This document shows, piece after piece, positions 28,176 through 48,542 of a stretch of 57,474 nucleotides of DNA. Below the pieces are notes generated by a model. It saw only the letters and a program-made list of their open reading frames with translations, did not search any database and was not told the origin of the DNA. A program made the position numbers and the translations under genes. Each line of letters opens with the position of its first letter. The first letter of the stretch is position 1. The stretch spans positions 1-57,474 of the forward strand of contig JABMRJ010000030.1 of NCBI GenBank assembly GCA_013202745.1. Reading direction: 5' to 3'. The stretch is from Candidatus Omnitrophota bacterium (lineage in GTDB: Bacteria > Omnitrophota > Gorgyraeia > JABMRJ01).

Positions 28176-28773
28176 AGCTCTTCCTTTTGCTTATTATTTT
28201 GACCCTTTCGCTGTCCTTCTTCACAATGCACATGGGACCTATCTTAACCACAGAAAATGCGAAGATCTCCTTGAACCCGGCAGAGATAATGCCCCTCTTT
28301 GAATGGAGATTACCTTCAGCGCAACATATATAAACCCTCTTTATGCCTTTCTTGAAATGGATAGATCTTGCATTCCGCAGACCGTTTTTATAAAAGCCTT
28401 TTCCCCTGTGTTTTGGGGCGGTAAAGCAGTCCCATACATAACCATCGCCTTGCCTTAAAACAAGCTTGTTATCAAATACCCATGGTATCTCTATCTCTTC
28501 ATCCGGAATTGAGCTCCATAAATATGAAGCTATGGAATTTTTTTTATCGAAGAAACCGTAACAGCGGTGCCCCTTCTCGCTATGGGCTTGGAATCTCTGA
28601 AACCTCTTCTTATCCGCAAATATGGGATCTATCCCGAAACATTCATTTGGAATTTCCTTAAATACACAGCCGTCCATATCCATATCTTCAATTAGGCAAT
28701 CTGTATCTACGTCAGCCTGAAAAAAGCTGCCTTTATAAAACCTGAATAAGTAGTCGGTTAATCTCTTTATCAA
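28159..28773 (-). CDS. GNAT-like acyltransferase
   Basis: ..DCFTAPKHRGKGFYKNGLRNA.. resembles GNAT motif A. Size (204 aa) fits. Confidence 0.5.
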   Translation of the reverse strand: MIKRLTDYLFRFYKGSFFQADVDTDCLIEDMDMDGCVFKEIPNECFGIDPIFADKKRFQRFQAHSEKGHRCYGFFDKKNSIASYLWSSIPDEEIEIPWVFDNKLVLRQGDGYVWDCFTAPKHRGKGFYKNGLRNARSIHFKKGIKRVYICCAEGNLHSKRGIISAGFKEIFAFSVVKIGPMCIVKKDSERVKIISKRKSYDIIG

Positions 28774-29786
28774 ATGATCCTCTCACTCCTTTTTATCCAG
28801 TGTGCCACATTCTTTCCTAAAAGTGACGGTGAGATCGATAGGATTGCTCTTTTCAGCGAAGCACCCTGACTTTCTTTCTTTTCTTTGCCTATCCTGCCCG
28901 GATTAGGGGTAGAGTAATAATAGATATCGCTTGGCCTTCCGCCAAAATTTGTCTTAAACCGGTAGACCGTCCCCCCTTCTCTCGACTCTCCCATATCCAG
29001 CAGGCCTATTCCATTATCCAGGCAGAGCTTCATCGTCTCCCATATCAGAAAATCGTTCGGCGCAAACTTACGATGACTCTCTAAAGAAGACTGAAAAGGA
29101 TAGATAGCTATATCCTTTGAAAATAAAATAAGGATACCGGCTATAACTCTATTATCCTTCTTTGCTACAATAAGCTCTGTTTTATCCTTCATCTTCTCAG
29201 CTATATTTTTGAAAAATGTGTAAGAATGCGCCGGTAATCCCTTCCGGAGCATGCTCGATACATATACCTTGTAAAACTCCTTTAAATTGCAGAATCCCTT
29301 CTCTGCTGCCAGTTCGGATCTTACGGCCTTGCGGATCATATTTCTGGTTTTATCTCTCAAAGATCTCCACGTTGATTCAGCATCCTGCGCCAGATCTATT
29401 ATAACGGTCTTTTTTATCAACTCTCCCAGGTCCGTATCTACACGTCGGTTTCCGGATGTCACAAGGGCCGACTCGATCCCATTTCGCCGGCAAAAAGAGA
29501 TCATATGCAAAAAAAGTTCGTTTTGTATATCGCTACTATCGGCTACACAGCCGTATCTTAAGGAGTACAACTTCTTCCTTCCTCTTATGCTCTTCGTTAC
29601 ATAAGTGGGCAAGACTCCTTCTATATCACCGCCGCTTCCCGAGGCGATAAAGAAGAATGTCTTTATCTTATAAGTATCCTCCAGTATTTGGCGCCATGCA
29701 TAGAGGTTCATCGGAGGGTTATATGAAAACCTGCCGAGGTATGCATCCCAGCTATTCTTATCAGCTTTTGTTGCTAGTCTTATCAT
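28770..29786 (-). CDS. FemAB / BioF2-like (Acetyltransf_6) family acyl- or aminoacyl-transferase
   Basis: 338 aa. ..NSWDAYL..NLYAWRQILEDTY.. at the N-terminus and ..GGTVYRFKTNFGGRP.. near the C-terminus are typical of the FemAB/CelD-like GNAT superfamily. Confidence 0.6.
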   Translation of the reverse strand: MIRLATKADKNSWDAYLGRFSYNPPMNLYAWRQILEDTYKIKTFFFIASGSGGDIEGVLPTYVTKSIRGRKKLYSLRYGCVADSSDIQNELFLHMISFCRRNGIESALVTSGNRRVDTDLGELIKKTVIIDLAQDAESTWRSLRDKTRNMIRKAVRSELAAEKGFCNLKEFYKVYVSSMLRKGLPAHSYTFFKNIAEKMKDKTELIVAKKDNRVIAGILILFSKDIAIYPFQSSLESHRKFAPNDFLIWETMKLCLDNGIGLLDMGESREGGTVYRFKTNFGGRPSDIYYYSTPNPGRIGKEKKESQGASLKRAILSISPSLLGKNVAHWIKRSERII

Positions 29787-32835: not shown

Positions 32836-33978
32836 TTATAATTTACCCTGAAAATTTTTTGTAGTCTCCTTATAGGCCTCCCACTGCCCTACATCCAGCC
32901 ACGATTTTTCACTTACGGGGTAGACACCGATCTTACATTTCTTTCTTTTAAGTTTTTTGATAAAGTCGGTAATGTGAAAAGTTCTGTCTCTTGGAATATA
33001 CCTTAATGTCTTCTTATCTACAAGATACATCCCTGTATTGACCAGGAAATCATATTCGGGTTTTTCCTCTATCTTTTTTAACTCCCCTCCGGAATTTATG
33101 TCTACGACTCCATAAGGGACTACAAAATGCTGCATTGAACATATTATTGTTAAGTCGTAACCATTCTTTTTATGAAAGCTATATATGTCATCATATCTGG
33201 CTTTTATAATAGTGTCGCAATTTGACAAAAAGAATGTATTCGAAATGGTCCGGGGTAAAAGTTTTAATCCCCCTACTGTTCCAAGCGCCCTATCTTTTTC
33301 GTAAATATATTTTACCTTGTATTCTGCTCCGCTATTATCAAAATACGACTTTATCATCTCGCCCTTGTAACCTATAATAAAATAGATGGCGTCTGTTATA
33401 TGCTCCCTGAAATTATCTATTATCAACTCGATGACAGGCTTATCACCGACAGGTATTAAGGCCTTCGGCAATATTTTAGTAAAAGGATCGAGCCGGCTGC
33501 CTTGGCCGCCGGCCATTACAACGAGGGGTATCTTAAGGGCCTGCGCCTTACTTGGCATGCCGGCTTCATCCTTTATCACATCGCTCCAGAAGAGAAGATT
33601 TACAATTCTTTTGTTTTCATCTACTATAGGTAAGGAATTTACACCTGCCTCCAGCATAATCTTCCTTATCCTTCTTTTGGATGTATACCTGTCAACATAG
33701 ACGGGGTTATCATTATAGATCTTATCAACCTTTGCGCCCAAATCACCGTCAGTAAGTATCCAGCGCCGTATGTCTCCGTCTGTAATAGTGCCTATGAGCT
33801 TACGTTTCTTATCGGTAAGAAAGAGTATCTTCCTGGATCCCTTATCCATATGCTTCATGGCATTCTTTATTGTATATTTGCCTGTTATAAAAAGATCTTC
33901 CAATTTTTTTGTCATATTTTCACCATTCCCTTTATTGCCAGTTTTATATTCTATGTAACCTGGTGCCTGAGACACCAC
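32836..33978 (-). CDS. CBS-domain nucleotidyltransferase (PtmE-like sugar-1-phosphate nucleotidylyltransferase)
   Basis: N-terminal tandem CBS-like region (..LIGTITDGDIRR.., ..NSLPIVDENKRIVNLL..), then ..VVMAGGQGSRLDPFTKILPKALIPVGDKPVIE.. Confidence 0.8.
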   Translation of the reverse strand: MVSQAPGYIEYKTGNKGNGENMTKKLEDLFITGKYTIKNAMKHMDKGSRKILFLTDKKRKLIGTITDGDIRRWILTDGDLGAKVDKIYNDNPVYVDRYTSKRRIRKIMLEAGVNSLPIVDENKRIVNLLFWSDVIKDEAGMPSKAQALKIPLVVMAGGQGSRLDPFTKILPKALIPVGDKPVIELIIDNFREHITDAIYFIIGYKGEMIKSYFDNSGAEYKVKYIYEKDRALGTVGGLKLLPRTISNTFFLSNCDTIIKARYDDIYSFHKKNGYDLTIICSMQHFVVPYGVVDINSGGELKKIEEKPEYDFLVNTGMYLVDKKTLRYIPRDRTFHITDFIKKLKRKKCKIGVYPVSEKSWLDVGQWEAYKETTKNFQGKL

Positions 33979-35168
33979 TTACCGTTCTCCTTCTTCCATA
34001 AATGCGGCGACCTGAATCTATCGCATAACTCAAGGAAATGCTCAGGATCCATTCCGATATATTCCATAACCTCTTTGAAATATTGTTTCGGGAATTCACC
34101 GTCGAAGCGCTTTACAAGCGCCACTCCCTCTTGGCGCGTCAGGTGCTTATTTCTTATCTCCTGAGACGCCTCATAGGTAGTCCTTCCGATCCCAAATTTT
34201 ATAAATGTTGTGTAAAAATGAAAACCGTCTATACGGTCATCGAGGCTGTTGTATTTGCTATATGTCCCCTCTGTGCGTACCGGATTGGCCTGGAACCCTG
34301 TGTGTTCGGCAGCATAATAGTATGCCTCCTGAGGCGTCCATTTGATGTAATATCCCAAATAATTGACTATAAGGTTAATCTTCTCAATTTCCTTATTGTC
34401 CATTGGCAAAAACGCGCTTAATTCATTGAGGGACAATTTATGCTTTTCGATAAGCTCGGGTATCGATACTCCTCCCATGTATACCTTTGATAAGTCCTTC
34501 ATGGCGTAATAGGACTTATCGCGCAAAGAAGTTGAGTTATCAGCTACAGGATTACCGTATTCTGCCTCATTTTCGCCGTAAAATATTAAAGGTATCCCAT
34601 ACTTTGCCGCTACCTTAGGAACAATATTCTTCTGCCCCAATATAAAGGTCTGGAAAGGATGTAAGAGGTTCTCTATGGAAAGGCGGGTAAGAAGCTTCAT
34701 GGCTTTGCCATTTGGCTTGAATGTAATATTATCGAACCCCCCTATTTCAATCCAATTGCGGAAATTCTTCCAGCCTATATCAGTATATATAACAGGAGGC
34801 CATGTCACTGTAAGCGGATGCATGCCATATTTATATTTCAATATATGGGCGGCATATGCGCTGTCCTTGCCTCCGCTTCCGGGAACGACACAATCGTAAT
34901 AGCCGTCATTCCTTCGGTGCTTATCCAGAAGCCTTAGTAGCTCCTCTTCTCTTTGTTTCCAATCTATGCCCTCTTTCACATCTGCATAACGGCATGCATC
35001 ACAGATACCTTCTTCGTCAATATGCATACTCCTGTGCTTATGGTCCTGTGAATGTTTGAATTCATGAGTAGATGTCGGACGCTGATTCGACATCACACAC
35101 CGCTTGCAGAATATAACCTTTTCAGGCAGTCCGTATCGCGCTTCCAGGATCTTCTCTGTATCTATCAC
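33951..35168 (-). CDS. N-acetyl sugar amidotransferase (WbuX/WbpG/PseA family)
   Basis: ..FCKRCVMSNQRPT.. zinc-ribbon-like start, and PP-loop ..VVPGSGGKDSAYAAHILK... It sits immediately downstream of HisH/HisF paralogs. Confidence 0.8.
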   Translation of the reverse strand: MIDTEKILEARYGLPEKVIFCKRCVMSNQRPTSTHEFKHSQDHKHRSMHIDEEGICDACRYADVKEGIDWKQREEELLRLLDKHRRNDGYYDCVVPGSGGKDSAYAAHILKYKYGMHPLTVTWPPVIYTDIGWKNFRNWIEIGGFDNITFKPNGKAMKLLTRLSIENLLHPFQTFILGQKNIVPKVAAKYGIPLIFYGENEAEYGNPVADNSTSLRDKSYYAMKDLSKVYMGGVSIPELIEKHKLSLNELSAFLPMDNKEIEKINLIVNYLGYYIKWTPQEAYYYAAEHTGFQANPVRTEGTYSKYNSLDDRIDGFHFYTTFIKFGIGRTTYEASQEIRNKHLTRQEGVALVKRFDGEFPKQYFKEVMEYIGMDPEHFLELCDRFRSPHLWKKENGKWCLRHQVT

Positions 35169-35850
35169 CTTTAGACCTCCTTGTACTTAATGCAAAATTC
35201 TTATAAATTTTCAAACCGCTTAAAGCGCTCCTTTCAGGGTGAAATTGGCACGCAAATATATTTTTATAACGTAGGCTTGAACAAAACCTGATATTTCCGT
35301 ATTGGGATTCTGACAGAACTATATCTTTCTCTTGGGGGTCTGCATAGAAAGAATGGACAAAATACATATATTCCCCTCCCTCCAGACCGTCAAGCAGCGT
35401 CTCGGACCACATATCGCTGTTCTCTTTATGCGCCGATTTATATATACGGTTCCATCCTATCTCCGGAACTTTTAGCCTTCCGCCCAGCTGATCAACCGGG
35501 TTGCCAAAATGCTTAACCTCTCCTTTTATGATATCCAGCCCCTCATGGCACCCGAACTCCATGCTCTTTGACATAAGCAGCTGCATACCGAGACATATAG
35601 CTAAAAAAGGCTTCTCCATGCCCGCTATTTCGCGCAAAACACTGCTTAAGCCGAGATCCCTCAATGCGTTCATTGCATCTGGGAATGCCCCGACACCCGG
35701 CAGGATCACGGCATCTGCTGAGCGGATCTTTTCTTCGGATGATGTCAGCACGCCCTTAAGCCCCACGCTCAGACAGGCATGTTTCACGCTGAATAGATTA
35801 CCCATGCCATAATCTATAATTGCAGCTATAGGGCTATCTTTATCATGCAT
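35122..35850 (-). CDS. Imidazole glycerol phosphate synthase HisH-like glutamine amidotransferase (WbuY-like)
   Basis: ..IIDYGMGNLFSV.., ..AICLGMQLL.. (nucleophile Cys), ..CQFHPERS.. Confidence 0.85.
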   Translation of the reverse strand: MHDKDSPIAAIIDYGMGNLFSVKHACLSVGLKGVLTSSEEKIRSADAVILPGVGAFPDAMNALRDLGLSSVLREIAGMEKPFLAICLGMQLLMSKSMEFGCHEGLDIIKGEVKHFGNPVDQLGGRLKVPEIGWNRIYKSAHKENSDMWSETLLDGLEGGEYMYFVHSFYADPQEKDIVLSESQYGNIRFCSSLRYKNIFACQFHPERSALSGLKIYKNFALSTRRSKGDRYREDPGSAIRTA

Positions 35851-36715
35851 AAAGCTTCTCCGCTTTGTAACCGCGGCACTCTATACCGCTTCTCATAAGG
35901 AATTCCTTTATATCCTGAAGCGACGTATGGTTTATCATTGAAAATGAACGTTTATTTCTCATATATTCTATATTGCCTTCACCGGAGAAATCACCCTTGT
36001 TTTCATGCTTCATAACAATGTCGTAATGGAGTATTGACGCAACGCTTACGGCGTCTGCCCTTCCTTGTGTAATTACGTCTTTAATATCTTCTTTATTGCC
36101 GGCGCCGCCGCATGCTATAACCGGGATGGAAACGGATTCTGCAATCTTTCTTGTAAGTTCTAAGTCAAGCCCCTTTCCCGTTCCTTCTCTATCAATAGAT
36201 GTAATAACTATCTCGCCTGCGCCCAATTCCGCTGCTCTTACCGCCCACTCCATGGCATCTACCCCGGTGCTCTCCCTGCCGTTATCGGTATAGGCCTCGT
36301 AACCGCCATCCGGCTTTCTTATCGCTTCAATAGAAATAACTATAGTGGATGAGCCAAAACGCTTTGATGCCCTGCGTATCAATTCGGGATCTTGCATAGC
36401 TGCGGTATTTATGGAGACCTTATCAGCCCCGGCCCTAAGAACGGCCTTTATATCATCTATATTTCTCAATCCACCCCCTACGGTAAGAGGAATGAAAATC
36501 TCTTTCGCGGTCCGCTCTACTATGCCCAGAAGGTTGTTCCTGCCGTATAGACTCGCAACAACATCCATATAGATGAGCTCGTCTGCCCCGTTTTCGTAAT
36601 AATGCCGCGCAAAATATTCGGGCTTGCCTAAAACGCGCAGGCCTTCCATGTGGATCCCTTTTACCAGATTCGGCCCCTTTATGTCGAGCCTCGGTATAAC
36701 TCTTATATACGCCAT
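35843..36715 (-). CDS. HisF-like cyclase subunit (WbuZ-like)
   Basis: ..RVIPRLDIKG.., ..ADELIYMDV.., ..IPLTVGGGLRNIDD.., ..PVIACGGAGN.. Confidence 0.85.
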   Translation of the reverse strand: MAYIRVIPRLDIKGPNLVKGIHMEGLRVLGKPEYFARHYYENGADELIYMDVVASLYGRNNLLGIVERTAKEIFIPLTVGGGLRNIDDIKAVLRAGADKVSINTAAMQDPELIRRASKRFGSSTIVISIEAIRKPDGGYEAYTDNGRESTGVDAMEWAVRAAELGAGEIVITSIDREGTGKGLDLELTRKIAESVSIPVIACGGAGNKEDIKDVITQGRADAVSVASILHYDIVMKHENKGDFSGEGNIEYMRNKRSFSMINHTSLQDIKEFLMRSGIECRGYKAEKLYA

Positions 36716-37881
36716 CTTATATTGTAAAATTCCTTTTTTAACAACAGCCCCTTTACTGTCTTTATTATCTTTGCTATTCTTTTTGAAGCGCTTCCATCCC
36801 CGTATGGGCTCTTTATTCTCTTTAAGGTTTTCTGGAATTCCGGCGTATAGAGTTTTCTAATGGCCTTTTTTATATCTTCCTTACGGGGGCTGCAATCGAT
36901 AATACTCTCTGTCCTGATCCTCCCCTTTTGCCTATCGCCTATATTGACCGTGCCTATCTTAAAGCTTGGGGCCTCAATGATACCGCTCGATGAGTTTCCA
37001 ACAACTGCATCGACAAACTGCATTGTTGAAAGGTACTTTCGCTGCCCCATGGAGATAAATGCCTTTGATTTATACGGCCTCTTTGCAACATACTTATCTA
37101 TCATCTTATTTATTATCCTGCCCTCTGTATCAGCGTTTGCCATCGTAAATATTATATGTGTACCTTTAAGTGAATCCAACACATTAAGCAGGTTCCCAAA
37201 CTGCTTTTTCGATGTCCCCTTTTCAAGAGTAACAGGATGGAACGTAACAAGCAGATTGCGTTTTGCAAATTTAAAACTTAATTCCTTTTCCAGATCTTTT
37301 TTGGATAAAAACTTCATCCTTTTTATACTATCCAGCCCTGTTGCCCCTACGTTAAATACCCTGTCAGGCTGCTCGCCCAGCTGTATCACTCTCTTTCTGT
37401 ATTCGTCCGTAGATGTAAAATGGAGATGGCTCATCTTTGTTATGGAATGCCTGATCGCCTCATCTATCACGCCAAAGGTCGCCTCGCCCCCGTTTATGTG
37501 TGCTATAGGTATTCTCCATATCATAGCAGCGGTTGCGGCTGAAAAGGCCTCAAACCTATCGCCCAAAATCACTACCATGTCTGGTTTTAACTTCACAAAA
37601 GCCTTACTCAATTTTAAAATAGCAGAAGAGACAGACCTATTTATGCCCACAGGCGTATCATCCTCTAGAAAAATTTTTACTTTTTCGTCTATCTTAAGCC
37701 CGTCCCTTTCGATCTCCTTATATGTTGACCCGAACTCAGGTAAAAGATGCATGGCAGAAGCTACTATCTGGAGCTTAAATGCCTTATCCTTCCTTACCTC
37801 TTCCATAAGCGGTCTTAAAAGGCCGTATTCGGCCCTTGTACCCGTAAAGACGCAGATCTTTTTCTTACTTTTTTTAGTCAT
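36703..37881 (-). CDS. UDP/GDP-N-acetylglucosamine 2-epimerase (hydrolysing), NeuC/LegG-like
   Basis: ..KKICVFTGTRAEYGLLRPLMEEV.., ..IAHINGGEATFGVIDEAIRHSITKMSHLHF.. Confidence 0.9.
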   Translation of the reverse strand: MTKKSKKKICVFTGTRAEYGLLRPLMEEVRKDKAFKLQIVASAMHLLPEFGSTYKEIERDGLKIDEKVKIFLEDDTPVGINRSVSSAILKLSKAFVKLKPDMVVILGDRFEAFSAATAAMIWRIPIAHINGGEATFGVIDEAIRHSITKMSHLHFTSTDEYRKRVIQLGEQPDRVFNVGATGLDSIKRMKFLSKKDLEKELSFKFAKRNLLVTFHPVTLEKGTSKKQFGNLLNVLDSLKGTHIIFTMANADTEGRIINKMIDKYVAKRPYKSKAFISMGQRKYLSTMQFVDAVVGNSSSGIIEAPSFKIGTVNIGDRQKGRIRTESIIDCSPRKEDIKKAIRKLYTPEFQKTLKRIKSPYGDGSASKRIAKIIKTVKGLLLKKEFYNIRWRI

Positions 37882-37883
37882 AG

Positions 37884-38555
37884 TTATTTAGACAACTCCT
37901 TTAAAACCATGAAGCTCTCTGCATATTTAAAACCAGCTGTTGCGCCCCTGAAGGTTGCGAGAGTTTTTATGTTTTTTACGCTTCTTGGAAACGGGTGTCT
38001 TCCTATCTCATTCTTAAAGATCTTCATGATCTCGATCTTTTTCGCTATAAATTCGCTTATATCCACAAAATAATTCGGCACAAATACAGAATCTTTCGTG
38101 GGAGGTGCAAATTCTGTTTCGCTTATCGTCTCCATCATCAAAACCTTGTTCAGGAATGGATAGCGGAACGTCTTTGTGCAGCTGTATGCGGCCTCGAAGA
38201 TTACTTTGTGATCACTGTGAACATCTCCGTTAAACGGCAGATAAAGTATATTCGGTTTAATGGCCTTGAATACTGTTGATATACTCTTAACCATCTCTTG
38301 CTTCGGAAACTCCTTCACCTGTGTCGTAGGAATATCAAGCATCTTAACGGCCTCAAATCCATACATGTTTGCAACAGACTTTATCTCCTTATCCCTTCTG
38401 GCTATCTCATCCTTCTTAAAGCCCTGCTCGCTTTTTATGCTCGTGGCAATAAGCCAGTATATCTTATCGCCTTTCTTTTTATGCTTTAGAAGGGAGCCTC
38501 CGCAGCCTAGGGTCTCATCATCCGGGTGGACAGCAAGGATCAGTACCTTATTCAT
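37884..38555 (-). CDS. PIG-L/LmbE-family N-deacetylase
   Basis: ..VLILAVHPDDETLGCGGSLLKH.. and ..GDVHSDHKV... Clear paralog of the 47844-48542 product. Confidence 0.85.
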   Translation of the reverse strand: MNKVLILAVHPDDETLGCGGSLLKHKKKGDKIYWLIATSIKSEQGFKKDEIARRDKEIKSVANMYGFEAVKMLDIPTTQVKEFPKQEMVKSISTVFKAIKPNILYLPFNGDVHSDHKVIFEAAYSCTKTFRYPFLNKVLMMETISETEFAPPTKDSVFVPNYFVDISEFIAKKIEIMKIFKNEIGRHPFPRSVKNIKTLATFRGATAGFKYAESFMVLKELSK

Positions 38556-39436
38556 TATAGACGGTCTCCTTTTCTTGGTAATTTTGCAAAATCATGTTCT
38601 GTAAGTAAGATTGCATTGTCGCCGCATTTAACCAATATATTGCCTTCGGCCGCATCGAGAACTTTGCCGCAATCAATCTCTTTTGAATTTACCATTACCT
38701 CCTTTGCAGCCCAGACCTTTATTCCTTTACCTTTATATGAAACATGCGCACCTACATAAGGCCTTGTGAGGGCCCTTATAAGGTTATACACTGTCCTGCT
38801 GTCAGCCCTGAAGTCGATCTCGCCATCCTTCTCTACTCTCTTCCTCCAATAACCCGATCTTGCAGGATCCTGCGGAATCCTATTAAATGTTCCGTCTTTC
38901 AGCTTCGGCAGGAAATCCTCTATCTGCTCCAGGGCTCTCTTTGTAACCCTATCACAAAGAGACCTCGCATTATCACTATAATCTATTAAAACCTCTGCCT
39001 GGCTCAATATATCACCATCGTCAAGGCCTTTCTTAATAAAGAAGAAGGTCGAAGCGGTCTTATCCAATCCTTTCGCGAGGGCCCATATAAGCGGGTGCCT
39101 CCCTCTGTTTTCCGGCAGCCTGGCAGGATGGTATCCTATTACACCCATAGGGGCGATTTGCAATACTTCCTCTTTTAACAGATGTGAAAACCCGAAACAG
39201 AACATAATATCAGGCGCTATCCGCCTCATCCAATCTATGTTTTCTTTTGAATTGATATCTTCTACATGCTTATAAGGAATATCCTTCTCGGTACAGACTG
39301 GAGCAAGGTCGGCAAAATCTGCATTTATGCCTGCGTCTTTTTTAGTAACAACACCTGCTATATCTGCATTCAGCTTTATCAGCTTTAAAAGTGCCTTTTT
39401 GCTGAACTCAACAGAACCTATAAATAGAATCCTCAT
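38555..39436 (-). CDS. Formyltransferase-fold protein with C-terminal Fmt-like domain; catalytic Asn position replaced
   Basis: ..MGVIGYHPARLPENRGRHPLIWAL..FFFIKKGLDDGDIL... His and Asp are kept. The residue two before His is Gly rather than Asn. Confidence 0.7.
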   Translation of the reverse strand: MRILFIGSVEFSKKALLKLIKLNADIAGVVTKKDAGINADFADLAPVCTEKDIPYKHVEDINSKENIDWMRRIAPDIMFCFGFSHLLKEEVLQIAPMGVIGYHPARLPENRGRHPLIWALAKGLDKTASTFFFIKKGLDDGDILSQAEVLIDYSDNARSLCDRVTKRALEQIEDFLPKLKDGTFNRIPQDPARSGYWRKRVEKDGEIDFRADSRTVYNLIRALTRPYVGAHVSYKGKGIKVWAAKEVMVNSKEIDCGKVLDAAEGNILVKCGDNAILLTEHDFAKLPRKGDRL

Positions 39437-40434
39437 AGCTCTATTTGCTCATCCTTCTTAAAGTCTTTCTTTGCCGCTCTACCTATTACATCGGGCCACC
39501 TTAGGGGGCTTATACCTGTACCTGGTCTCTTTGCCCCAATATTCCTGTCGCTAAACAATTCCCCCTCCTTAATATCGCGCTCGGCAACTATGCTCTTGCG
39601 TACTACAGGGATATTCCTAAGCTCGGAAGCGCTTGGCCTTTTTATGCCACTGCCAAGCCCTTTTTCCACGGCCCTAATCGCAGAGACCATCTCTTTTAGT
39701 TCATTCGGCTCCAGAGAGGCGCGATGGTCCGGGCCGGCCATCCCTCTATCAAGGGTAAAGTGTTTCTCGATAACAGTTGCCCCTAATGCTGCTGCAGCAA
39801 TCGGTAAGGCAATTCCCGGCGTATGGTCTGAATAACCAACCTCTACATTAAGTTTATCTCTTATAGTAATCATTGCCGATAGATTGGCATCTTCAAATGG
39901 TGTCGGATATTCTGTATTACAGTGCAGGACGGTTATATCATCCTTATGCAATCCTGCCCCCTTTAATATATCAAGTGCCTTTGCCACCTCTCTTAACTCC
40001 GACATACCGGTAGATAGTATAACCTTCTTATTCAAGGATCCTATTCTTTTAAGAAAAGGGAAATTCGTTATCTCGCCGGATGGTATTTTGTATATCTTCA
40101 AGCCCAGCTCTTCGAGCCGCTCTACGCTCTCTATGTCAAATGGGCTCGACAAGAATAATATGCCCTTCTTGGTGCAATAATTCATAAGTTCCCTATGGGC
40201 ATCTATATCCAATTCCAGCCTCTTTAACATATCGAGGTGTGACTCCCTGCCGTTTGTGCTTCTTTTTTGATATTCCGCCTTAGAGGCAAAACGGCTTACT
40301 ATCCTTTCTGCTCTGAAGGTTTGAAACTTTACGGCGTCTGCCCCGGCATCATAAGCAGCATTTACCATCCGCATGGCTATTCCCAGATCTCCGTTATGAT
40401 TAACGCCTGCCTCTGCTATTATAAAGATACTCAT
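39433..40434 (-). CDS. N-acetylneuraminate-type (NulO) synthase, NeuB/LegI-like, with C-terminal SAF domain
   Basis: ..MSIFIIAEAGVNHNGDLGIAMRMVNAAYDAGADAVKFQTF.. and a C-terminal ..RKSIVAERDIKEGELFSDRNIGAKRPG.. Confidence 0.9.
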   Translation of the reverse strand: MSIFIIAEAGVNHNGDLGIAMRMVNAAYDAGADAVKFQTFRAERIVSRFASKAEYQKRSTNGRESHLDMLKRLELDIDAHRELMNYCTKKGILFLSSPFDIESVERLEELGLKIYKIPSGEITNFPFLKRIGSLNKKVILSTGMSELREVAKALDILKGAGLHKDDITVLHCNTEYPTPFEDANLSAMITIRDKLNVEVGYSDHTPGIALPIAAAALGATVIEKHFTLDRGMAGPDHRASLEPNELKEMVSAIRAVEKGLGSGIKRPSASELRNIPVVRKSIVAERDIKEGELFSDRNIGAKRPGTGISPLRWPDVIGRAAKKDFKKDEQIEL

Positions 40435-40437
40435 ACA

Positions 40438-42864
40438 TTACTTTCCTTTAAAGATTAGATAGTTCCCCATCACAAGACAATCCAGGCCGCATGAAAAGAA
40501 TGTCCGCACTGCATCCTGGGGTGAGCAGACTATCGGTTCGCCATTTATATTAAAAGAGGTATTCAAGACCACAGGGATACCCATCACCCTGTTAAATTCC
40601 GATATCAATCCGTAGAAACTCGGATTCATCTCTTCCGAAACGGTCTGGAGCCTTCCCGTCCCGTCAATGTGTACAACCGCCGGAATAAGCCCTTTCTTAT
40701 CTTTTTTGACCTTGCAGACCTTCTCCATAAAAGGCACGCTGTTGCCTCCGGATGTCTCAAAATAATCTTTTGTATACTTCTCCAATACCGAAGGTGCAAA
40801 AGGACGGAAGGTCTCTCTATACTTAACCGCCTTGTTTACGATATCTTTAGTCTTTACCTGGCGCGGATCTGCCAGGATGGAACGGTTACCAAGCGCCCTT
40901 TGGCCAAACTCCATACTCCCCTGGAACCAGCCTATAAGCATGCCTTCTGAGATAAGTCTTGCCGTTATCTTCTCGATATCCTTATGGAAGGTATATTTAA
41001 GCTTATGTTTATCGAGGACCTCCTTAATCTCTTTGTTAGAAAATTCCGGACCCCAATAATTGTGCTGCTGGAAATGGCGTTTTTTATGGCCGAGTATGCA
41101 ATTGTATAAATAGAGCGCTCCTCCTATAGAAGTACCGCTGTCGTCTGGGCACGAAGAGATGAAGAGCTCTTTAAAGGGCGTCAAGTCCAGCAGTTTCCCG
41201 TTAAATACGGAGTTCATAGCGCATCCTCCGGAAAGAACGAGTTTGCTGCATCCGGTCGCGGCATGGAGGTGATTCAGCATATGGACGGCTATCTCTTCGA
41301 ATATTTGCTGTGCAGCAACCGCTATCTGCGTATGCCTATCACTTATCTTGCTATCCTTTTCCCTTGCCGGCCCTAAAAGTTCTATGAGCTTTTCAGTATA
41401 CATCGTATGCTGCCTGTCAAAGAGATAGAAGGTAAAATATGATAGGTCAAGCTCAAAGGTGCCGTCCTTCTTCAATGTTATGATACTCTTAAGCTTCCTA
41501 TAATATTTATTGTCTCGCTTGCCATAAGAGGCCAATGCCATGACCTTCCACTCATCGGAATCAGGCCTGAATCCCAGGTATTCGGTAATGGCCCCGTAGA
41601 ATAACCCGAGTGAATGCGGCATCATAACAGATTGAATCTTTTTTATGCTATTACCTTTCCCTTTCGCAAATAGACATGTTTCATTTTCACCCCTCCCATC
41701 CATCGTAAGTATTGCAGCCTTCTCAAATGGAGAGAGTAAAAATGCATTTGCGGTATGCGCATCATGGTGATTAATAAAAAAGAGGGAGAGATCCTTGCCA
41801 TTCAGGGAGATCTTCTGTTCTATGTGCTTAGGATCTGAGCTGTAGAACTGGTTCAAGAGACAGCTTGGTGTTGAATATAGATATTCACCGCGCCATCTAA
41901 TAGGTTTCGAATATCTCATACTTGCCGATTTTATATGTAATGCCGGATTCCACGACATGACGATGTAGTCAATGTCATTAATCGTTATCCCTGCTCTATC
42001 AAGACAATAAGCTATCGCTTTATTAGGAAATGCGTTAGACATCTTCTGTCTGTCGAATCTCTCTTCCGGAGCCGCAGCAATAATCTTACCGTCTTCTATC
42101 AGGGCCGCTGAAGAAATCCAGATATCCGGGCTTATACCGAGTATTCTCACGCCATAACCTCTTTTTTTAGAGGTTAACTGTTTCTTTCTAGTTACCCTGT
42201 TATCGGGATCATGCTCAAATCTATAACCGCTCAGATCGATATAGGCACCAGGCATATCAGGATAAGTGGATGCCTTTATCCTTTTGGCTATCTCTTTTTT
42301 TGACATCCTGGGGCTTATTTTGCATAATGCCTCTAAATCATTACGCTTATAAGGCTTTCTCTTCCACTTTTCAGTGCAATGCGGAAGTTCTTTTCTATCC
42401 AAAACAAAATTCATAACATCTAAGAATGCCGAAAACATTTCGTCGTAGCTTTTCATGCTCAGGTTATATATCGAATCGGATTCCAGCAGACGAAACCTCT
42501 TTACCGATATTATCTTGCCCGTATCAACCTTTTTGTCCATGATATGGGCTGTAACACCATAGGTCTTTTCGTTGTTGTAGACGGCAAAATTAAAACAACC
42601 TATACCAGGATACTCCGGAGGGCCGGGATGGAAATTGATATTCCAGAGCTTTGTCCTCTTTAGAATCTTACTGGGAATTATCCATGGTGATAGATAGGAT
42701 ATTATTATATCTGGAGATTCATTATAAGGTTGCTTTGGAAAAGGATCCTTCACCCCTCCCGGATATATAGTTAATTTCTCTGAATGCCTCTTTAAGTACT
42801 CTATTACCTCTTTTACTGTATACTTTTCGGGTTTTGTGAATAATGTGACTTTCATCTTAAACAT
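40438..42864 (-). CDS. Fusion protein: N-terminal formyltransferase-fold domain plus NodU/CmcH-family carbamoyltransferase
   Basis: Residues about 1-230 contain ..LWNINFHPGPPEYPGIG..GVTAHIMDKKVDTGKII... The remaining roughly 570 aa contain ..ILGISPDIWISSAALIEDGKIIAAAPEERFDRQK.., ..FFINHHDAHTANAF.., ..LNTSFNINGEPIV.. (carbamoyltransferase N and C domains). Confidence 0.8.
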   Translation of the reverse strand: MFKMKVTLFTKPEKYTVKEVIEYLKRHSEKLTIYPGGVKDPFPKQPYNESPDIIISYLSPWIIPSKILKRTKLWNINFHPGPPEYPGIGCFNFAVYNNEKTYGVTAHIMDKKVDTGKIISVKRFRLLESDSIYNLSMKSYDEMFSAFLDVMNFVLDRKELPHCTEKWKRKPYKRNDLEALCKISPRMSKKEIAKRIKASTYPDMPGAYIDLSGYRFEHDPDNRVTRKKQLTSKKRGYGVRILGISPDIWISSAALIEDGKIIAAAPEERFDRQKMSNAFPNKAIAYCLDRAGITINDIDYIVMSWNPALHIKSASMRYSKPIRWRGEYLYSTPSCLLNQFYSSDPKHIEQKISLNGKDLSLFFINHHDAHTANAFLLSPFEKAAILTMDGRGENETCLFAKGKGNSIKKIQSVMMPHSLGLFYGAITEYLGFRPDSDEWKVMALASYGKRDNKYYRKLKSIITLKKDGTFELDLSYFTFYLFDRQHTMYTEKLIELLGPAREKDSKISDRHTQIAVAAQQIFEEIAVHMLNHLHAATGCSKLVLSGGCAMNSVFNGKLLDLTPFKELFISSCPDDSGTSIGGALYLYNCILGHKKRHFQQHNYWGPEFSNKEIKEVLDKHKLKYTFHKDIEKITARLISEGMLIGWFQGSMEFGQRALGNRSILADPRQVKTKDIVNKAVKYRETFRPFAPSVLEKYTKDYFETSGGNSVPFMEKVCKVKKDKKGLIPAVVHIDGTGRLQTVSEEMNPSFYGLISEFNRVMGIPVVLNTSFNINGEPIVCSPQDAVRTFFSCGLDCLVMGNYLIFKGK

Positions 42865-44940: not shown

Positions 44941-46610
44941 TTATCTTTTCTCCAATCTTTCTCTCTTTTTGCCTTTTCAGGAAAAAGGTATGTTTCCATA
45001 AATTCGTTATTAGGATGCTGTGGGTTCTTTGACAAATAACTTAAAAGCTGCCCTTCATCAAAGATTACCCGGTTCTGACCATTAAATTCCATATTAACAA
45101 AATCACATCTCTTTTTTAAAAGCTCCATCGGTTCAGGAAAAGGCCTAATGGGGCTGCCTGCCATACAAAAAGCGATTACCAGCTTATTCGTACATAGTGT
45201 TATTGGAAAGGCTGTGGTCTTTACATGTGTAAAAATAAAGGCGTCGGCAAGCGACAGGTAATCTTCGAGATAACCCTTCAATACCTTAACTCTGCTTTTA
45301 AAAATACTCTCGACTTCCGGTAAATTTTCAGGATGCGCCTTATAAAATACCTCATAACCGGCATCTTTGAGAAGATCTATGATGCGCAGTTCAAGATCTA
45401 ACTGCATAAATCCTAAAGCGGACGGAGTCAGATGTTTTCTTAAATGTGTATAAAGATAACCCACCATCATTACCTTCTTAACCTCCTTCGGTAATTTTTT
45501 CTTGTTATACATCTTGTACCATTTATAGTATTCATTGCTGTCAGCGGATTTGATTACGGTATTAACGGGCCTAAGAGGTTTATGGCTCTTTTTAATCTTC
45601 TCAAAGAGTTCAATGCTCTTGGTAGTATATGTAATAAATTCATCCGAAAGCGCAAATTCTGAAAATGCCATTGTCGGAGTATCAAATAGACCTATGTGGC
45701 CGCCATGGCTAAAACTTGTAATCCTCCCTCCTTGTCGGCGAACTGCTATAGAGAGCGCTCTAATAAACGGACTATTTAAATTAGCTGTCAATAAATGAAT
45801 TTTTTTTCTTCTCATTTTGATTTCATCTTTTAATGCTCCGAGTATTCTGGCAGAAAATATTAATTCGTTTTGCATCATTTGTCTTAGATGATCAATATGC
45901 ACATTAAAGATCTCAATCTCATTTTTGACGGCTATCGATCTCAATTCATCGGCAAAGGCCCTCGATATCTCTTTTATGGCATTCTCTTTCTTATTGGGTA
46001 TCATATAAGTGAATCTTTTCGGCAACCAATCGGACGGTGATGTAAAATAGGTATAATATGGCGCCTTTTTAATATATTCACCCGTAAGAGAGCTTACTGA
46101 ACCGCAGAATAATGCGTTCTCTTCATTATCTTTTGGTTTAAAGCATTTAAGAGGATTTGAGTTATATATTACATTCTTGGCAATCTTTTTTATAGTGATC
46201 TCTGTATTCTTGCAAAAGGTGTAATTACAAAGATCACACATAGGCCTACCTATGTTCGGTATGGGATTTTCCGCGGGATAATGGTCTGTTGTGAGCTTCT
46301 TATACCAGGGCGTATGATCTGTATATAAAATACGCATTCCCAGCCTACCTATCTTCTGTATTACCTTCAAGGCATGTAAAAAATGGAGGTATTCAGTAAC
46401 CAGGTACCGCTGAATAAGAAATATATCGCCTATCTCTTCCGGCTGGGTGGTTATATATCTCCTTAAAGAGGCGCTGATATCCTCATATAACGCAAAGAAT
46501 TCGCTGTCGGATACAGGCCAAAAGAAATCATTTCGCCATTTCTCTATTCCGTATTCTTTAATCTTTATTATATCAACCGGGAAATATCTATCTTTGCAGC
46601 CCTGTGCCAT
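44937..46610 (-). CDS. Hypothetical protein; C-terminal GT-B-like half with KxHP-type motif (candidate CMP-NulO transferase)
   Basis: 557 aa, soluble. ..KIHLLTANLNSPFIRALSIAVRRQGGRITSF.. and ..GYEVFYKAHPENLPEV..ADAFIFTHVKTTAFPITLCTNKLVIAF... Distant by-eye similarity to the 29761-31314 product. Confidence 0.35.
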   Translation of the reverse strand: MAQGCKDRYFPVDIIKIKEYGIEKWRNDFFWPVSDSEFFALYEDISASLRRYITTQPEEIGDIFLIQRYLVTEYLHFLHALKVIQKIGRLGMRILYTDHTPWYKKLTTDHYPAENPIPNIGRPMCDLCNYTFCKNTEITIKKIAKNVIYNSNPLKCFKPKDNEENALFCGSVSSLTGEYIKKAPYYTYFTSPSDWLPKRFTYMIPNKKENAIKEISRAFADELRSIAVKNEIEIFNVHIDHLRQMMQNELIFSARILGALKDEIKMRRKKIHLLTANLNSPFIRALSIAVRRQGGRITSFSHGGHIGLFDTPTMAFSEFALSDEFITYTTKSIELFEKIKKSHKPLRPVNTVIKSADSNEYYKWYKMYNKKKLPKEVKKVMMVGYLYTHLRKHLTPSALGFMQLDLELRIIDLLKDAGYEVFYKAHPENLPEVESIFKSRVKVLKGYLEDYLSLADAFIFTHVKTTAFPITLCTNKLVIAFCMAGSPIRPFPEPMELLKKRCDFVNMEFNGQNRVIFDEGQLLSYLSKNPQHPNNEFMETYLFPEKAKREKDWRKDK

Positions 46611-47184
46611 AAATCCTTATCCTTTTCCTCTGCTTAAGAAACTCTTGTTGAGAAATGCCCATATATATTTTATCCATATACCTGCCTTCAAAATTATAAA
46701 GATCCTTTATTCTCCCTTCAACCTTAAACCCGACCTTTTTGTACAGCTTTATCGCCGCTACATGCTTTTGGCAAACACCGAGAAAAACCTTATTCAAATT
46801 CAATTTCGTAAATGAATATTCCAGAAGAAGGCGGCAGGCCTCCTGTCCGTAGCCCATGCACCAGCATCTTTTCTCACCTATCATGATTCCAAGGTCACCA
46901 TATCGATGTGTCCAATTTATCTTACCCAACTTAACATTACCTATATGAATATTTTCCTTTTTCGTAACTATAGCAAACATAATATTATCTTTAGATTTTT
47001 GCATATTCTGAAAATATTTTTGTAAACTAGTATATGTGGTTGGAGAACCCTTGTTTATCATGTATTTAACAACGCTGTTGTCATTGAGCCATGACAGGTA
47101 CCTTCTGTTTATATCCTTTTTTACAATAGGCCTAAGATATATCTTATCACCTGCAAGAAGAGGTCCTTTATGCCTTTTTCTCAT
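46588..47184 (-). CDS. GNAT N-acetyltransferase, RimJ/RimL/PseH-like
   Basis: ..IYLRPIVKKDINRRYLSWLNDNSVVKYM.. and ..RCWCMGYGQEACRLLLEYSF.. Confidence 0.75.
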   Translation of the reverse strand: MRKRHKGPLLAGDKIYLRPIVKKDINRRYLSWLNDNSVVKYMINKGSPTTYTSLQKYFQNMQKSKDNIMFAIVTKKENIHIGNVKLGKINWTHRYGDLGIMIGEKRCWCMGYGQEACRLLLEYSFTKLNLNKVFLGVCQKHVAAIKLYKKVGFKVEGRIKDLYNFEGRYMDKIYMGISQQEFLKQRKRIRIYGTGLQR

Positions 47185-47187
47185 AAA

Positions 47188-47865
47188 CTATTTTCCACTA
47201 CACTTTTCTTTACGAATCTTCAGGGTGTACTTATATCCCTTGTGCCTAAAGAAAGCCGGGAACCTCTTATTATTCACAATTCTTAATAAGTTAAATTGCT
47301 CTTTTAGCGTCTTATCCATATCCAATGCACTATCAACCGGCTTCCTCCTTTTGTAAAAAGTAGACTTACCCTTCTGTTTTTCTGGTCTCAATCTTTTATA
47401 TTCAGTTAAAAATCTTAAACAGAGGTCTAGCGTTTTTCTCGCCTGCTTTTCTCTTATCTCACTATTCAGTTCGTGGCCTTTCATTTTTATATAATCTTTT
47501 AAGTACAAATCTCCATCGTCAATTTTTTCATTTGCATCGAATAAAACTATCGGCACTACATTCTTGCCTTCCAGTACCTGCCAGAATAATGGTGCCCACC
47601 CTTTACCTTTCGGGAGATCACTCTCGTGTACCACTAAATTATGTTTATGCTTCCGCAAATATCCTGCTCCTATCAGGCGCGTATAATTTAATATAAATAC
47701 TATTTTGTAGTTCTCATCGATCTTTCTGTGATCATAGAATAGCCCGGGCCTTAATCTCTTATTCTTAAGTGTTGCAACGAATTGCCTTGCATAAGGGAGA
47801 AACCAGCTCCCTTTTGAGGTCAATACGGCTACACTCTTAGAATTCATCTTATCACCCTGACGCAT
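47188..47865 (-). CDS. Formyltransferase-fold protein, divergent (catalytic Asn position replaced)
   Basis: ..HNLVVHESDLPKGKGWAPLFWQVLEG..VLFDANEKIDDGDLY... His and Asp are kept. The residue two before His is Val, and RG is replaced by KG. Confidence 0.55.
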   Translation of the reverse strand: MRQGDKMNSKSVAVLTSKGSWFLPYARQFVATLKNKRLRPGLFYDHRKIDENYKIVFILNYTRLIGAGYLRKHKHNLVVHESDLPKGKGWAPLFWQVLEGKNVVPIVLFDANEKIDDGDLYLKDYIKMKGHELNSEIREKQARKTLDLCLRFLTEYKRLRPEKQKGKSTFYKRRKPVDSALDMDKTLKEQFNLLRIVNNKRFPAFFRHKGYKYTLKIRKEKCSGK

Positions 47866-48542
47866 TCAAATGCTTCCGCGTGGCTCAGGCCGACTACGCT
47901 GCCCCGTAGTTTTGCAAGATTTCTGACAGATTTATCCGATCGAGGATGCGGGAAGTTCCTATATTCTGTCTTATAAATCTTGAGGGCCTTGATCTTTCTG
48001 TCTATAGTCTCAGATATATCGATAAAGACATTGGGATTAAAGCGATTGGGGTAATTCCACTCTGTTGCAGAGGGGGTTTCAAAAGAGTAGATCTCCTTGG
48101 TCTCTTCCCCTCTCATCGGCCTGCAGGCTGTCAAGACGGCCTTAAAGACTATCCTATGGTCTACATTCAGATCATTCCAGTGGTGAGTATAGATTATGCT
48201 GGGATTTATCTTATCCTTAACCTTCTCAATAACCTTTATAATATCCAACAAGGGGGTTTTATCAAATCTATTATCCGGGAACTGATATATAAAAAGCTTT
48301 TTTACGCCAATAGCGTCATTGGCCTTATGGGCTTCGTTCTGCAATCTCTTTATATCATCCATCCGGGCCTTCTTTCTACGTTTCGTATCTCTTGAGGTTA
48401 TCCCCTCTCCCAAGATAAGGGTGGCCGCGTTAAACCCTTCTTTAATTAAGCGCGCAAGTGTCCCACCGCAGCCCAGGATCTCATCATCAGGGTGTGCGGC
48501 AACGACTAAGATATCCCTTCTCTTCTCCCGCTTTATCATCAC
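47844..48542 (-). CDS. PIG-L/LmbE-family N-deacetylase
   Basis: ..ILVVAAHPDDEILGCGGTLARL.. and ..DLNVDHRIV.. Confidence 0.85.
   Translation of the reverse strand: MMIKREKRRDILVVAAHPDDEILGCGGTLARLIKEGFNAATLILGEGITSRDTKRRKKARMDDIKRLQNEAHKANDAIGVKKLFIYQFPDNRFDKTPLLDIIKVIEKVKDKINPSIIYTHHWNDLNVDHRIVFKAVLTACRPMRGEETKEIYSFETPSATEWNYPNRFNPNVFIDISETIDRKIKALKIYKTEYRNFPHPRSDKSVRNLAKLRGSVVGLSHAEAFECVRVIR

Follow-up and report, generated by a model that had tools for sequence, protein, structure and literature searches.

Two distinct modules pairing a PIG-L deacetylase with an Asn-less formyltransferase-fold protein in an Omnitrophota nonulosonic acid locus, and their probable role in N-acyl editing

Nonulosonic acids (NulOs) decorate flagella, capsules, O-antigens and S-layers, and their N-acyl groups set charge, antigenicity and recognition by phages and lectins. 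Their biosynthetic pathways begin from N-acetylglucosamine (GlcNAc). Because of this, N5 of the nine-carbon sugar is acetylated by default, and any other group at this position needs prior de-N-acetylation, a step that to our knowledge has never been assigned to an enzyme in NulO pathways. Here we analyzed a NulO locus on contig JABMRJ010000030.1 of a Candidatus Omnitrophota bacterium (positions 1-57,474, 57,474 nucleotides [nt], hereafter the window), in which two formyltransferase (Fmt)-fold proteins lacking the Asn of the N-x-H motif are each coupled to a PIG-L/LmbE de-N-acetylase. Such Fmt-PIG-L pairs are obvious candidates for the N5 deacetylation step.

In characterized sugar N-formyltransferases (ArnA/GART/WlaRD), the N-x-H Asn is counted as a member of the catalytic triad. 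PseJ (Anoxybacillus kamchatkensis; PDB 6CI2-6CI5), WbkC, VioF, WbtJ and Rv3404c carry out amino-sugar formylation dependent on formyl-tetrahydrofolate (formyl-THF), on a 4-amino group provided by an aminotransferase, PseJ doing so in the pseudaminic acid (Pse) pathway. PseJ and the small sugar 4-N-formyltransferases have the canonical Asn-His-Asp triad, and we know of none described with a deacetylase. Characterized PIG-L/LmbE enzymes (MshB, BshB, PIG-L), for their part, de-N-acetylate 2-acetamido sugars. Two described NulO products are close to what we propose below. Halorubrum sp. PV6 caps its N-glycan with 5-N-formyl-legionaminic acid, and a predicted formyltransferase is encoded directly after legG (PMC6137143). 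In Candidatus Kuenenia stuttgartiensis, cytidine monophosphate (CMP)-NulOs with one formylated and one free amine have been described, and a deacetylase and a formyltransferase of its legionaminic acid (Leg) cluster were pointed to as candidates (bioRxiv 10.64898/2026.04.20.719630). Judged by their published descriptions, both products call for loss of the N-acetyl group that comes with GlcNAc, for N-formylation, or for both, and in both organisms the predicted formyltransferase adjoins legG/neuB, with a deacetylase in addition in Kuenenia.

The window is a single long glycan locus with all genes, across about positions 1-57474, on the minus strand. In the direction of transcription, a Pse-type set forms its upstream part and a Leg-type set comes next, and each of them holds one Fmt-PIG-L pair. 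The genes of the two pairs, their immediate neighbors and the other two Fmt-fold genes are the following.

47844-48542, minus strand: P0004, PIG-L/LmbE de-N-acetylase 2, 232 amino acids (aa) (Pfam PIG-L, 92.5 bits; AHPDDE, NVDH)
47188-47865 (open reading frame [ORF]; likely gene 47188-47847, 219 aa), minus strand: P0003, family B Fmt-fold protein (Pfam Formyl_trans_N)
46588-47184, minus strand: PseH-like GNAT N-acetyltransferase, directly after family B (Pfam Acetyltransf_3)
40438-42864, minus strand: P0006, 808-aa fusion of a canonical N-x-H formyltransferase domain and a NodU/CmcH carbamoyltransferase
39433-40434, minus strand: NeuB/LegI-type nonulosonate synthase (Pfam NeuB, 330 bits; TIGR03569, 498.7 bits, over the cut-off)
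38555-39436, minus strand: P0002, family A Fmt-fold protein, 293 aa (Pfam Formyl_trans_N and Formyl_trans_C)
37884-38555, minus strand: P0001, PIG-L/LmbE de-N-acetylase 1, 223 aa (Pfam PIG-L, 78.8 bits; VHPDDE, HSDH)
36703-37881, minus strand: NeuC/LegG-type hydrolyzing 2-epimerase (TIGR03568, 502.7 bits)
22639-23343, minus strand: P0005, canonical small formyltransferase, VNFHPG (Pfam Formyl_trans_N), not adjoining a PIG-L gene

We propose, with a probability of roughly 0.6, that the window holds two old and widespread N-acyl editing modules that swap N-acetyl for N-formyl in NulO pathways and that were not duplicated locally. Module 1 (NeuB - family A Fmt - PIG-L - NeuC) belongs to the Leg-type set. 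In this module, the PIG-L zinc hydrolase would remove the GlcNAc-derived N-acetyl group from the hexose C2 nitrogen, which later becomes N5 of the nine-carbon sugar, and the ArnA-like family A protein would formylate the freed amine from N10-formyl-THF, yielding a 5-N-formyl NulO. The other amine (hexose C4 nitrogen, later N7) would be acylated separately, here by the formyltransferase domain of P0006, which fills the LegH slot after LegC, and in most genomes by a LegH-type acetyltransferase. Module 2 (PIG-L - family B Fmt - GNAT) belongs to the Pse-type set and would probably perform the same swap on a Pse precursor; for family B such a swap is plausible where a PIG-L gene is present, as in the window. 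On the grounds of their family and of the NeuB/NeuC context, the PIG-L enzymes are presumed to act on an intermediate of the NulO pathways. The genes, their motifs and fold, the tight coupling, the wide synteny and the conservation are observed directly, and it is the reaction order, the edited nitrogen, the pathway stage (nucleotide-sugar, free NulO or CMP-NulO), the folate donor and catalysis without the Asn that we infer. The order in Kuenenia, deacetylase and then formyltransferase, differs from that of module 1. As for Halorubrum PV6, translation of the published HrrPV6_1050 primers gives peptides (MRVVFI; IRGQSRPY) similar to those of family A (MRILFIG; IRALTRPY), which, with the primers alone compared, is a weak lead.

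Both P0002 and P0003 are members of the formyl-THF-dependent formyltransferase superfamily by fold and by cut-off. Indeed, they pass the cut-off of Formyl_trans_N (PF00551; 26.1) with 78.5 and 30.0 bits, respectively. Formyl_trans_C (cut-off, 21.1) is found in P0002 with 66.6 bits, whereas P0003 is without this domain and has only a short 1ZGH-like C-terminal subdomain. Against the ArnA, PRK06988 and fmt models of NCBIfam, P0002 stays under the cut-offs (NF005998, 177.6 versus 777; NF005414, 177 versus 316; TIGR00460, 149.7 versus 201.5), as does P0003 with about 41-50 bits. The AlphaFold2 model of P0002 (predicted local distance difference test score, 93.7) superposes on the ArnA formyltransferase domain and Fmt with template modeling (TM) scores of 0.88-0.92. 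The closest fold to the P0003 model (93.1) is PDB 1ZGH (TM, 0.78), and its scores to 1ZGH and sugar 4-N-formyltransferases range from 0.7 to 0.78.

The Fmt-fold domains, of which the window holds exactly four as an earlier reading of this DNA made from the sequence alone (the sequence-only reading) had stated, were aligned with HMMER to ArnA, Bacillus anthracis Fmt, LgrA and WbkC, and a joint six-sequence MAFFT alignment was made. The loss of the Asn announced for 38555-39436 and 47188-47865 was thereby confirmed. In P0002 (GVIGYHP...RGRHP...DDGD), Gly takes the place of Asn in both the HMMER and the MAFFT alignments, GVIGYHP being aligned to GAFNLHG and DDGD to DAGA of ArnA. In P0003 (KHNLVVHESDLPKGKGW...IDDGD), the NLVVHESDLP segment was aligned to ArnA and B. 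anthracis Fmt, and the Asn position is occupied by Val in the ArnA alignment and by a gap in the Fmt and MAFFT alignments. As also expected, N-x-H...D is kept in P0005 (VNFHPG versus LgrA INLHPS) and in the N-domain of P0006 (INFHPG versus VNLHPS of WbkC, in which N-x-H is present). All four domains retain the LP..RG loop as well as the His and the catalytic Asp, and H103, P108, G112, D139 and G141 (P0002 numbering) are invariant in the six-sequence alignment. The catalytic His and Asp (H103 and D139 in P0002; the His of VVHES and the first Asp of IDDGD in P0003) are also invariant in the family A and family B alignments. The sequence-only reading had named a shifted Asn as the finding that would speak against a loss. 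For family A the loss stands, with Gly at the Asn site; in family B an invariant Asn at H-4, on the same strand, is possibly such a shifted Asn. Judging from sequence alone, candidate stand-ins for the missing residue are two invariant, family-specific residues of family A, His114 and Asn110 (both in 'PxNRGRHP'), and for family B the Asn at H-4.

Compared with the N-terminal domain of Escherichia coli ArnA (PDB 2BLN, 5J63, 1YRW) and with Fmt, P0002 shares, at about 25% identity, the Formyl_trans_N plus Formyl_trans_C architecture, the LP..RG loop and two of the catalytic residues, His and Asp, and like ArnA it stands in an amino-sugar pathway. It differs in an invariant Gly for Asn and in an invariant His in 'RGRHP' where they have Ala. 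Furthermore, the partner of the ArnA domain is a decarboxylase domain, whereas that of P0002 is a PIG-L deacetylase in a NeuB/NeuC context. The closest solved relative of P0003 is 1ZGH (a 'methionyl-tRNA formyltransferase' of Clostridium thermocellum from structural genomics; E value of 1.9e-16 with the family profile), for which we found no publication. 1ZGH is likewise without the Asn (TCVVFHMTDLP), but it shares only about 23% identity with P0003 and does not have the invariant Asn at H-4 of family B. P0003 also shares the core fold of PseJ, WbkC, VioF, WbtJ and Rv3404c. However, it has no PseJ match at an E value of ≤0.01 and no Asn at H-2, and it is followed by the PseH-like GNAT (60.6 bits to the PseH model TIGR03585, under the cut-off of 93.1). 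A PseJ-type role in 4-amino formylation fits the N-domain of P0006 and P0005 in the window, and not P0002 or P0003. Literature searches on mutagenesis of the Asn, His and Asp, on 1ZGH and on PIG-L plus formyltransferase with Pse/Leg gave no biochemistry of family A or B, and no mention of the Asn-to-Gly trait was found. HypX was considered as a precedent for a modified triad and dismissed, since the paper treats His/Ser/Asp and not Asn. In databases, family A and B proteins are annotated as 'methionyl-tRNA formyltransferase' or 'formyltransferase family protein'.

The ORF coordinates, domains and motifs given in the sequence-only reading were all correct, all of these ORFs are on the minus strand, and the translational coupling is confirmed. 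Reading the junctions, we found ATGA between NeuB and P0002, TAATG between P0002 and P0001, where the start of P0001 overlaps the stop of P0002, a gap of 2 nt between P0001 and NeuC, and ATGA between P0004 and the second ATG of the P0003 frame. This second ATG, at position 47847, is the most likely start of P0003, a choice favored by the homologues and by the stored gene call, both of 219 aa. In contrast, the view of the locus as a duplicated two-gene cassette with closely paralogous PIG-L genes had to be given up. The PIG-L proteins P0001 and P0004 are only 32% identical and the Fmt-like proteins P0002 and P0003 only 20%, with Formyl_trans_C in P0002 alone, and the order of the genes is reversed, the Fmt gene standing ahead of PIG-L in the first pair and behind it in the second. 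Additionally, each PIG-L protein has much nearer counterparts (50-64%) in other genomes than its fellow in the window. Because of the low identity, the inverted order and the differing architectures, we consider the pairs as two different modules and not as duplicates.

To place family A in other genomes, we recovered 4985 relatives of P0002 by a word-indexed search, and among the best 120 (55-63% identity) almost all had G-[VI]-[VI]-G-[FY]-H-P. An exhaustive HMMER search of 50%-identity representatives gave 478 clusters at an E value of ≤1e-30, the best 150 of which (33-59% identity) were read. Gly stood at the Asn position in 149 of these 150, the His was kept in all 150 and the Asp in 149, and 131 combined Gly, His and Asp with the family-specific His of 'NRGRHP'. 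Such strong purifying selection on Gly-x-His and Asp, down to 33% identity, argues for an active enzyme. The Gly form extends beyond NulO clusters, since a homologue with 34% identity (GTVGFHPAALPRLRGRG) is encoded at 8995-9939 of a polysaccharide locus on pSymB of Sinorhizobium meliloti Rm41 (L167) that has glycosyltransferases, a PglF-like dehydratase, a sulfotransferase and an ATP-grasp gene and no NeuB or PIG-L. A search of plasmids yielded only such distant Gly-x-His homologues (33-36%, Sinorhizobium pSymB), which we dismissed as evidence on the pair because their locus is without NeuB or PIG-L.

Among GTDB species genomes, 418 stretches encode a family A relative, and synteny was counted in the best 80. 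Their hosts are Omnitrophota, Campylobacterota (including Campylobacter concisus), Bacteroidota, Desulfobacterota, Leptospira, Firmicutes, and Alpha- and Gammaproteobacteria. A P0001-type PIG-L gene (42-64% identity) lies on the same strand a few bases 3' of the family A stop in 77 of the 80 loci; in the remaining three, the contig ends in two and the PIG-L gene is 3 kb away in one. The gene directly upstream is NeuC in 50 loci and NeuB in 15, and in every case the pair stood in a NeuB/NeuC block. The window has the same arrangement, with PIG-L directly downstream on the same strand and NeuB and NeuC flanking. Examples are LegB - LegC - LegH(LbH) - NeuB - family A - PIG-L - NeuC - PtmE - LegF in Nitrospirota and a Planctomycetota-labelled metagenome-assembled genome (MAG), and LegB - LegC - canonical Fmt - NeuB - NeuC - family A - PIG-L - PtmE - LegF in C. 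concisus. Where LegC was visible (58 loci), an LbH LegH-type gene was present in 48 and a second Fmt gene in 7, so that 53 had either and 5 neither; the second Fmt genes had the canonical N-x-H wherever the motif was readable. Because 53 of 58 loci have a separate LegH-type or canonical Fmt gene, family A is an extra enzyme bound to the deacetylase and not a LegH substitute.

For family B, we obtained 1811 relatives. The best 120 share [KR]-H-N-[LI]-V-[VI]-H-E-S, with Val at H-2 and the invariant Asn at H-4. Synteny was read in 80 metagenome loci, 64 of which left room to judge PIG-L: a PIG-L gene was adjacent upstream in 19, elsewhere in the locus in 7 and not seen in 38 (no room in 16). The coupling depends on relatedness, with PIG-L directly upstream in 10/13 loci at ≥54% identity and in 3/36 below 50%, and the upstream genes in other genomes include P0004 orthologues (50-63% identity). 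The Asn-less motif is kept throughout, including the 38 loci with no PIG-L in reach. The usual position of family B is between PseG and PseI in Pse clusters, sometimes followed by a GNAT, although a GNAT match is absent in 42 of the 57 loci with room. Since it is common without PIG-L, family B may be able to act alone as a Pse-pathway formyltransferase and may formylate the PseC product. In Hydrogenivirga (L004), the family B gene is part of a flagellin glycosylation island (flagellin, Maf, PseB, PseC, PseI, PseF, ..., WbqC, PIG-L, family B, NeuB). A natural fusion of an N-terminal PseH-like GNAT and a C-terminal family B Fmt (P0218, 382 aa) mirrors the family B - GNAT adjacency of the window.

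Directly upstream of family B in L003 (8647-10017), and again in L091 (8-475), lies a fusion of 5-formyl-THF cyclo-ligase (5-FCL) and FolD (methylene-THF dehydrogenase/cyclohydrolase). The gene overlaps the family B start inside a NulO cluster. Enzymes of this type make 10-formyl-THF, and from its position and domains the fusion looks like a dedicated supply. It points to formyl-THF as the ordinary donor and is the sole direct hint on the donor.

The pairing can also be viewed from the deacetylases. All three PIG-L proteins of the window (P0001, P0004 and P0007, described below) are over the Pfam PF02585 cut-off, keep both metal-binding motifs, HPDD(E/D) and (H/N)xDH, and stay far under the BshB/MshB equivalog cut-offs. 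Searches with both pair PIG-Ls gave overlapping samples from one phylum, Omnitrophota, with several places recurring in both. About one third of the best PIG-L loci have an Fmt-fold neighbor, which was Asn-less wherever the motif was readable and was family A-like (G-x-H), family B or of a third, 1ZGH-like group. This third lineage, C-[IV]-x-F-H-M-T-D-L-P, stands directly beside P0004-type PIG-L genes of Omnitrophota in L199, L207, L216 and L227, with NeuB nearby in L199, L207 and L227. Other PIG-L partners are LbH acetyltransferases, WbqC plus GNAT, SDR plus cytidylyltransferase, and methyltransferase plus PP-loop amidotransferase. In the Pse-type clusters L189, L191 and L004, the gene immediately before PIG-L belongs each time to the WbqC family, and the gene after the two is a PseH-like GNAT in L189 and family B in L004; we know of no tested function for WbqC. 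No Fmt-PIG-L fusion was found among the longer representatives checked, where the only fusions were P0218 and P0271, which has an appended Biotin_carb_C fragment. A Kapaibacterium MAG (L047, 3536-4843) encodes a canonical VNFHPG small formyltransferase (44% identity to the P0006 N-domain) followed directly by PIG-L, with a family A gene 3 kb downstream. It is the single locus to depart from both patterns, the adjacency of family A to PIG-L and the Asn-less state of Fmt genes beside PIG-L.

Overall, these data agree with the earlier suggestion of a recurring deacetylase plus atypical Fmt pair tied to NulO synthesis (77/80 family A loci; 10/13 close family B relatives), and the proposed check of co-occurrence across genomes found PIG-L plus Fmt-like pairs in NulO clusters of many phyla for family A. 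The link between Asn loss and PIG-L held in part. That an Fmt beside PIG-L is Asn-less is true widely, in one direction only and with one exception (L047); the reverse fails, as the 38 family B loci without PIG-L demonstrate. Deacetylation followed by reacylation of one nitrogen, as originally suggested, remains the best reading for family A, and the N5 acetyl-to-formyl swap is favored because the family A/PIG-L coupling is near-universal and an independent acylating enzyme is encoded for the other amine. Several observations weigh against this proposal. The triad Asn is absent from P0002 and P0003, no biochemical study of family A or B was found in the literature, and the Ser two residues past the His varies in family A (Ala/Ser/Thr). 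PIG-L adjoins family B in only 19/64 loci, and family B may be a PseH substitute at the other nitrogen. The folate clue is limited to family B, in 2 of about 85 loci, and in the Omnitrophota sample PIG-Ls of the P0001 and P0004 types also occur without an Fmt neighbor. Finally, an acetamidino trio encoded with the pair in the window and in L005 requires an N-acetyl group, and the final product in the window organism is therefore uncertain.

The Fmt-like proteins could instead formylate the new 4-amino group (later N7) in place of LegH or PseH, the PIG-L acting independently and N5 being left free or acylated by an ATP-grasp, GNAT or WbqC protein. This would agree with the one free and one formylated amine of the Kuenenia NulOs, with the location of family B mostly between PseG and PseI, with the absence, within the flanks available, of a GNAT match from 42/57 and of PIG-L from 38/64 loci, with the lack of a PseH in reach in the Hydrogenivirga island, and with the many non-Fmt partners of PIG-L genes. 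Nevertheless, the other nitrogen is already provided for by a LegH-type or canonical Fmt gene in 53/58 family A loci, in the window the LegH slot is taken by the canonical domain of P0006 and a PseH-like GNAT comes after family B, and the GNAT-family B fusion would be redundant if both domains served the same nitrogen. We thus regard N7 formylation as unlikely. Catalytically dead Fmt-fold proteins, serving the deacetylase as scaffold or substrate-binding partners, would account for the loss of one canonical triad residue and for the obligate translational coupling of family A to PIG-L. Yet even very divergent members share an unchanged His103, Asp139, Gly141 and NRGRHP loop, which would not be expected of a dead site, family B often occurs with no PIG-L, and Fmt-PIG-L fusions were missing among the longer representatives checked, so that this role appears extremely improbable.

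The Asn loss might also mark a changed chemistry, in which a donor other than N10-formyl-THF is used or a group other than formyl is placed on the deacetylated amine. Three Asn-less lineages beside PIG-L would fit, as would the location of the canonical N-x-H genes of the same clusters in the LegH slot, and Gly could free space beside the transferred carbon. On the other side, the 5-FCL/FolD fusion adjoining family B points to formyl-THF, the His, the Asp and the loop are retained in the same fold as folate-bound ArnA and WbkC, in the loci examined no acyl-CoA ligase, acyl carrier protein or other donor-making gene recurred beside the pairs, N-formylated NulOs are known from nature, and a canonical Fmt also adjoins PIG-L in L047. 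We hold a changed chemistry to be very unlikely. In a broader form, the Fmt-fold proteins behind PIG-L would be a mechanistically distinct class of at least three lineages without the oxyanion-stabilizing Asn, with substrate-assisted catalysis (by the 2-amino sugar or N5), another one-carbon or acyl donor, or a non-formyl group, which seems distinctly unlikely. The different acyl donor suggested in the sequence-only reading is unsupported, with no positive evidence in its favor; the 5-FCL/FolD fusion and the strictly conserved His, Asp and loop residues favor ordinary folate-dependent formyl transfer.

Both modules, widespread and uncharacterized, thus rest on variant forms of known formyltransferases whose active site departs from the canonical one. 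Hundreds of species carry such pairs, and some of them are cultivable (Campylobacter concisus, Flavobacterium, Pontibacter, Brevibacillus and Thermoanaerobacterium). They are ordinary in distribution, and their interest lies in the fixed loss of a 'catalytic' residue and in a deacetylation step lacking an assigned enzyme. Their function, once shown, would explain the origin of 5-N-formyl-legionaminic acid and of free-amine NulOs and would let genomes predict NulO structures. Family A furthermore offers a test of whether the 'essential' formyltransferase Asn is dispensable in a large natural family. The window is a further instance of these modules, and what makes it special is the presence of both of them and of a third PIG-L-GNAT pair in one operon.

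The source genome is a 1.67-Mb MAG of 195 contigs. The window accounts for all three PIG-L genes of this genome and for four of the seven Fmt-fold genes, the other three Fmt-fold genes being encoded elsewhere. In the direction of transcription, the remaining genes are as follows.

Pse-type set, minus strand: PseB (partial), PseC, aldo/keto reductase, cytidylyltransferase
Pse-type set, minus strand: PseG-like protein, ATP-grasp protein, NeuB/PseI-like synthase
Pse-type set, before P0004, minus strand: LarA-N-like protein, B12-radical SAM protein
Start of the Leg-type set, minus strand: 557-aa protein without family match, LegB-like dehydratase, LegC-like aminotransferase
Leg-type set, after NeuC/LegG, minus strand: HisF-like protein, HisH-like protein, 405-aa protein
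End of the Leg-type set, minus strand: PtmE-like nucleotidyltransferase, cytidylyltransferase
Downstream of the Leg-type set, minus strand: KpsS-like gene, FemAB-like gene, GNAT
27264-28175, minus strand: P0007, third PIG-L deacetylase, 303 aa (Pfam PIG-L, 73.6 bits; PHPDDD, HDDH)
Downstream of P0007, minus strand: Asn-synthase-like gene (25576-27249), then glycosyltransferases
After P0005, minus strand: ABC transporter

The acetamidino trio (PP-loop amidotransferase/HisH/HisF) occurs with the family A-PIG-L pair at 33951-36715 of the window and at 15685-18273 of the Nitrospirota genome L005. Trio and pair are expected to target the same N-acetyl group, and the cluster may yield two products or an unexpected one. 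Two plus-strand ORFs, 36860-37891 (343 aa) and 38260-38604 (114 aa), lie antisense to NeuC and to the PIG-L/family A junction and are probably chance frames. P0007, which had been absent from the sequence-only reading, is coupled to a GNAT rather than to an Fmt: the GNAT gene (28159-28773) overlaps it, and P0007 itself has an N-terminal extension of about 65 aa. A gene for a FemAB-like acyl/aminoacyl-transferase (28770-29786) precedes the two and the Asn-synthase-like gene follows. The region from 27264 to 29786 may thus be a third deacetylate-then-reacylate unit, with a different acyl group.

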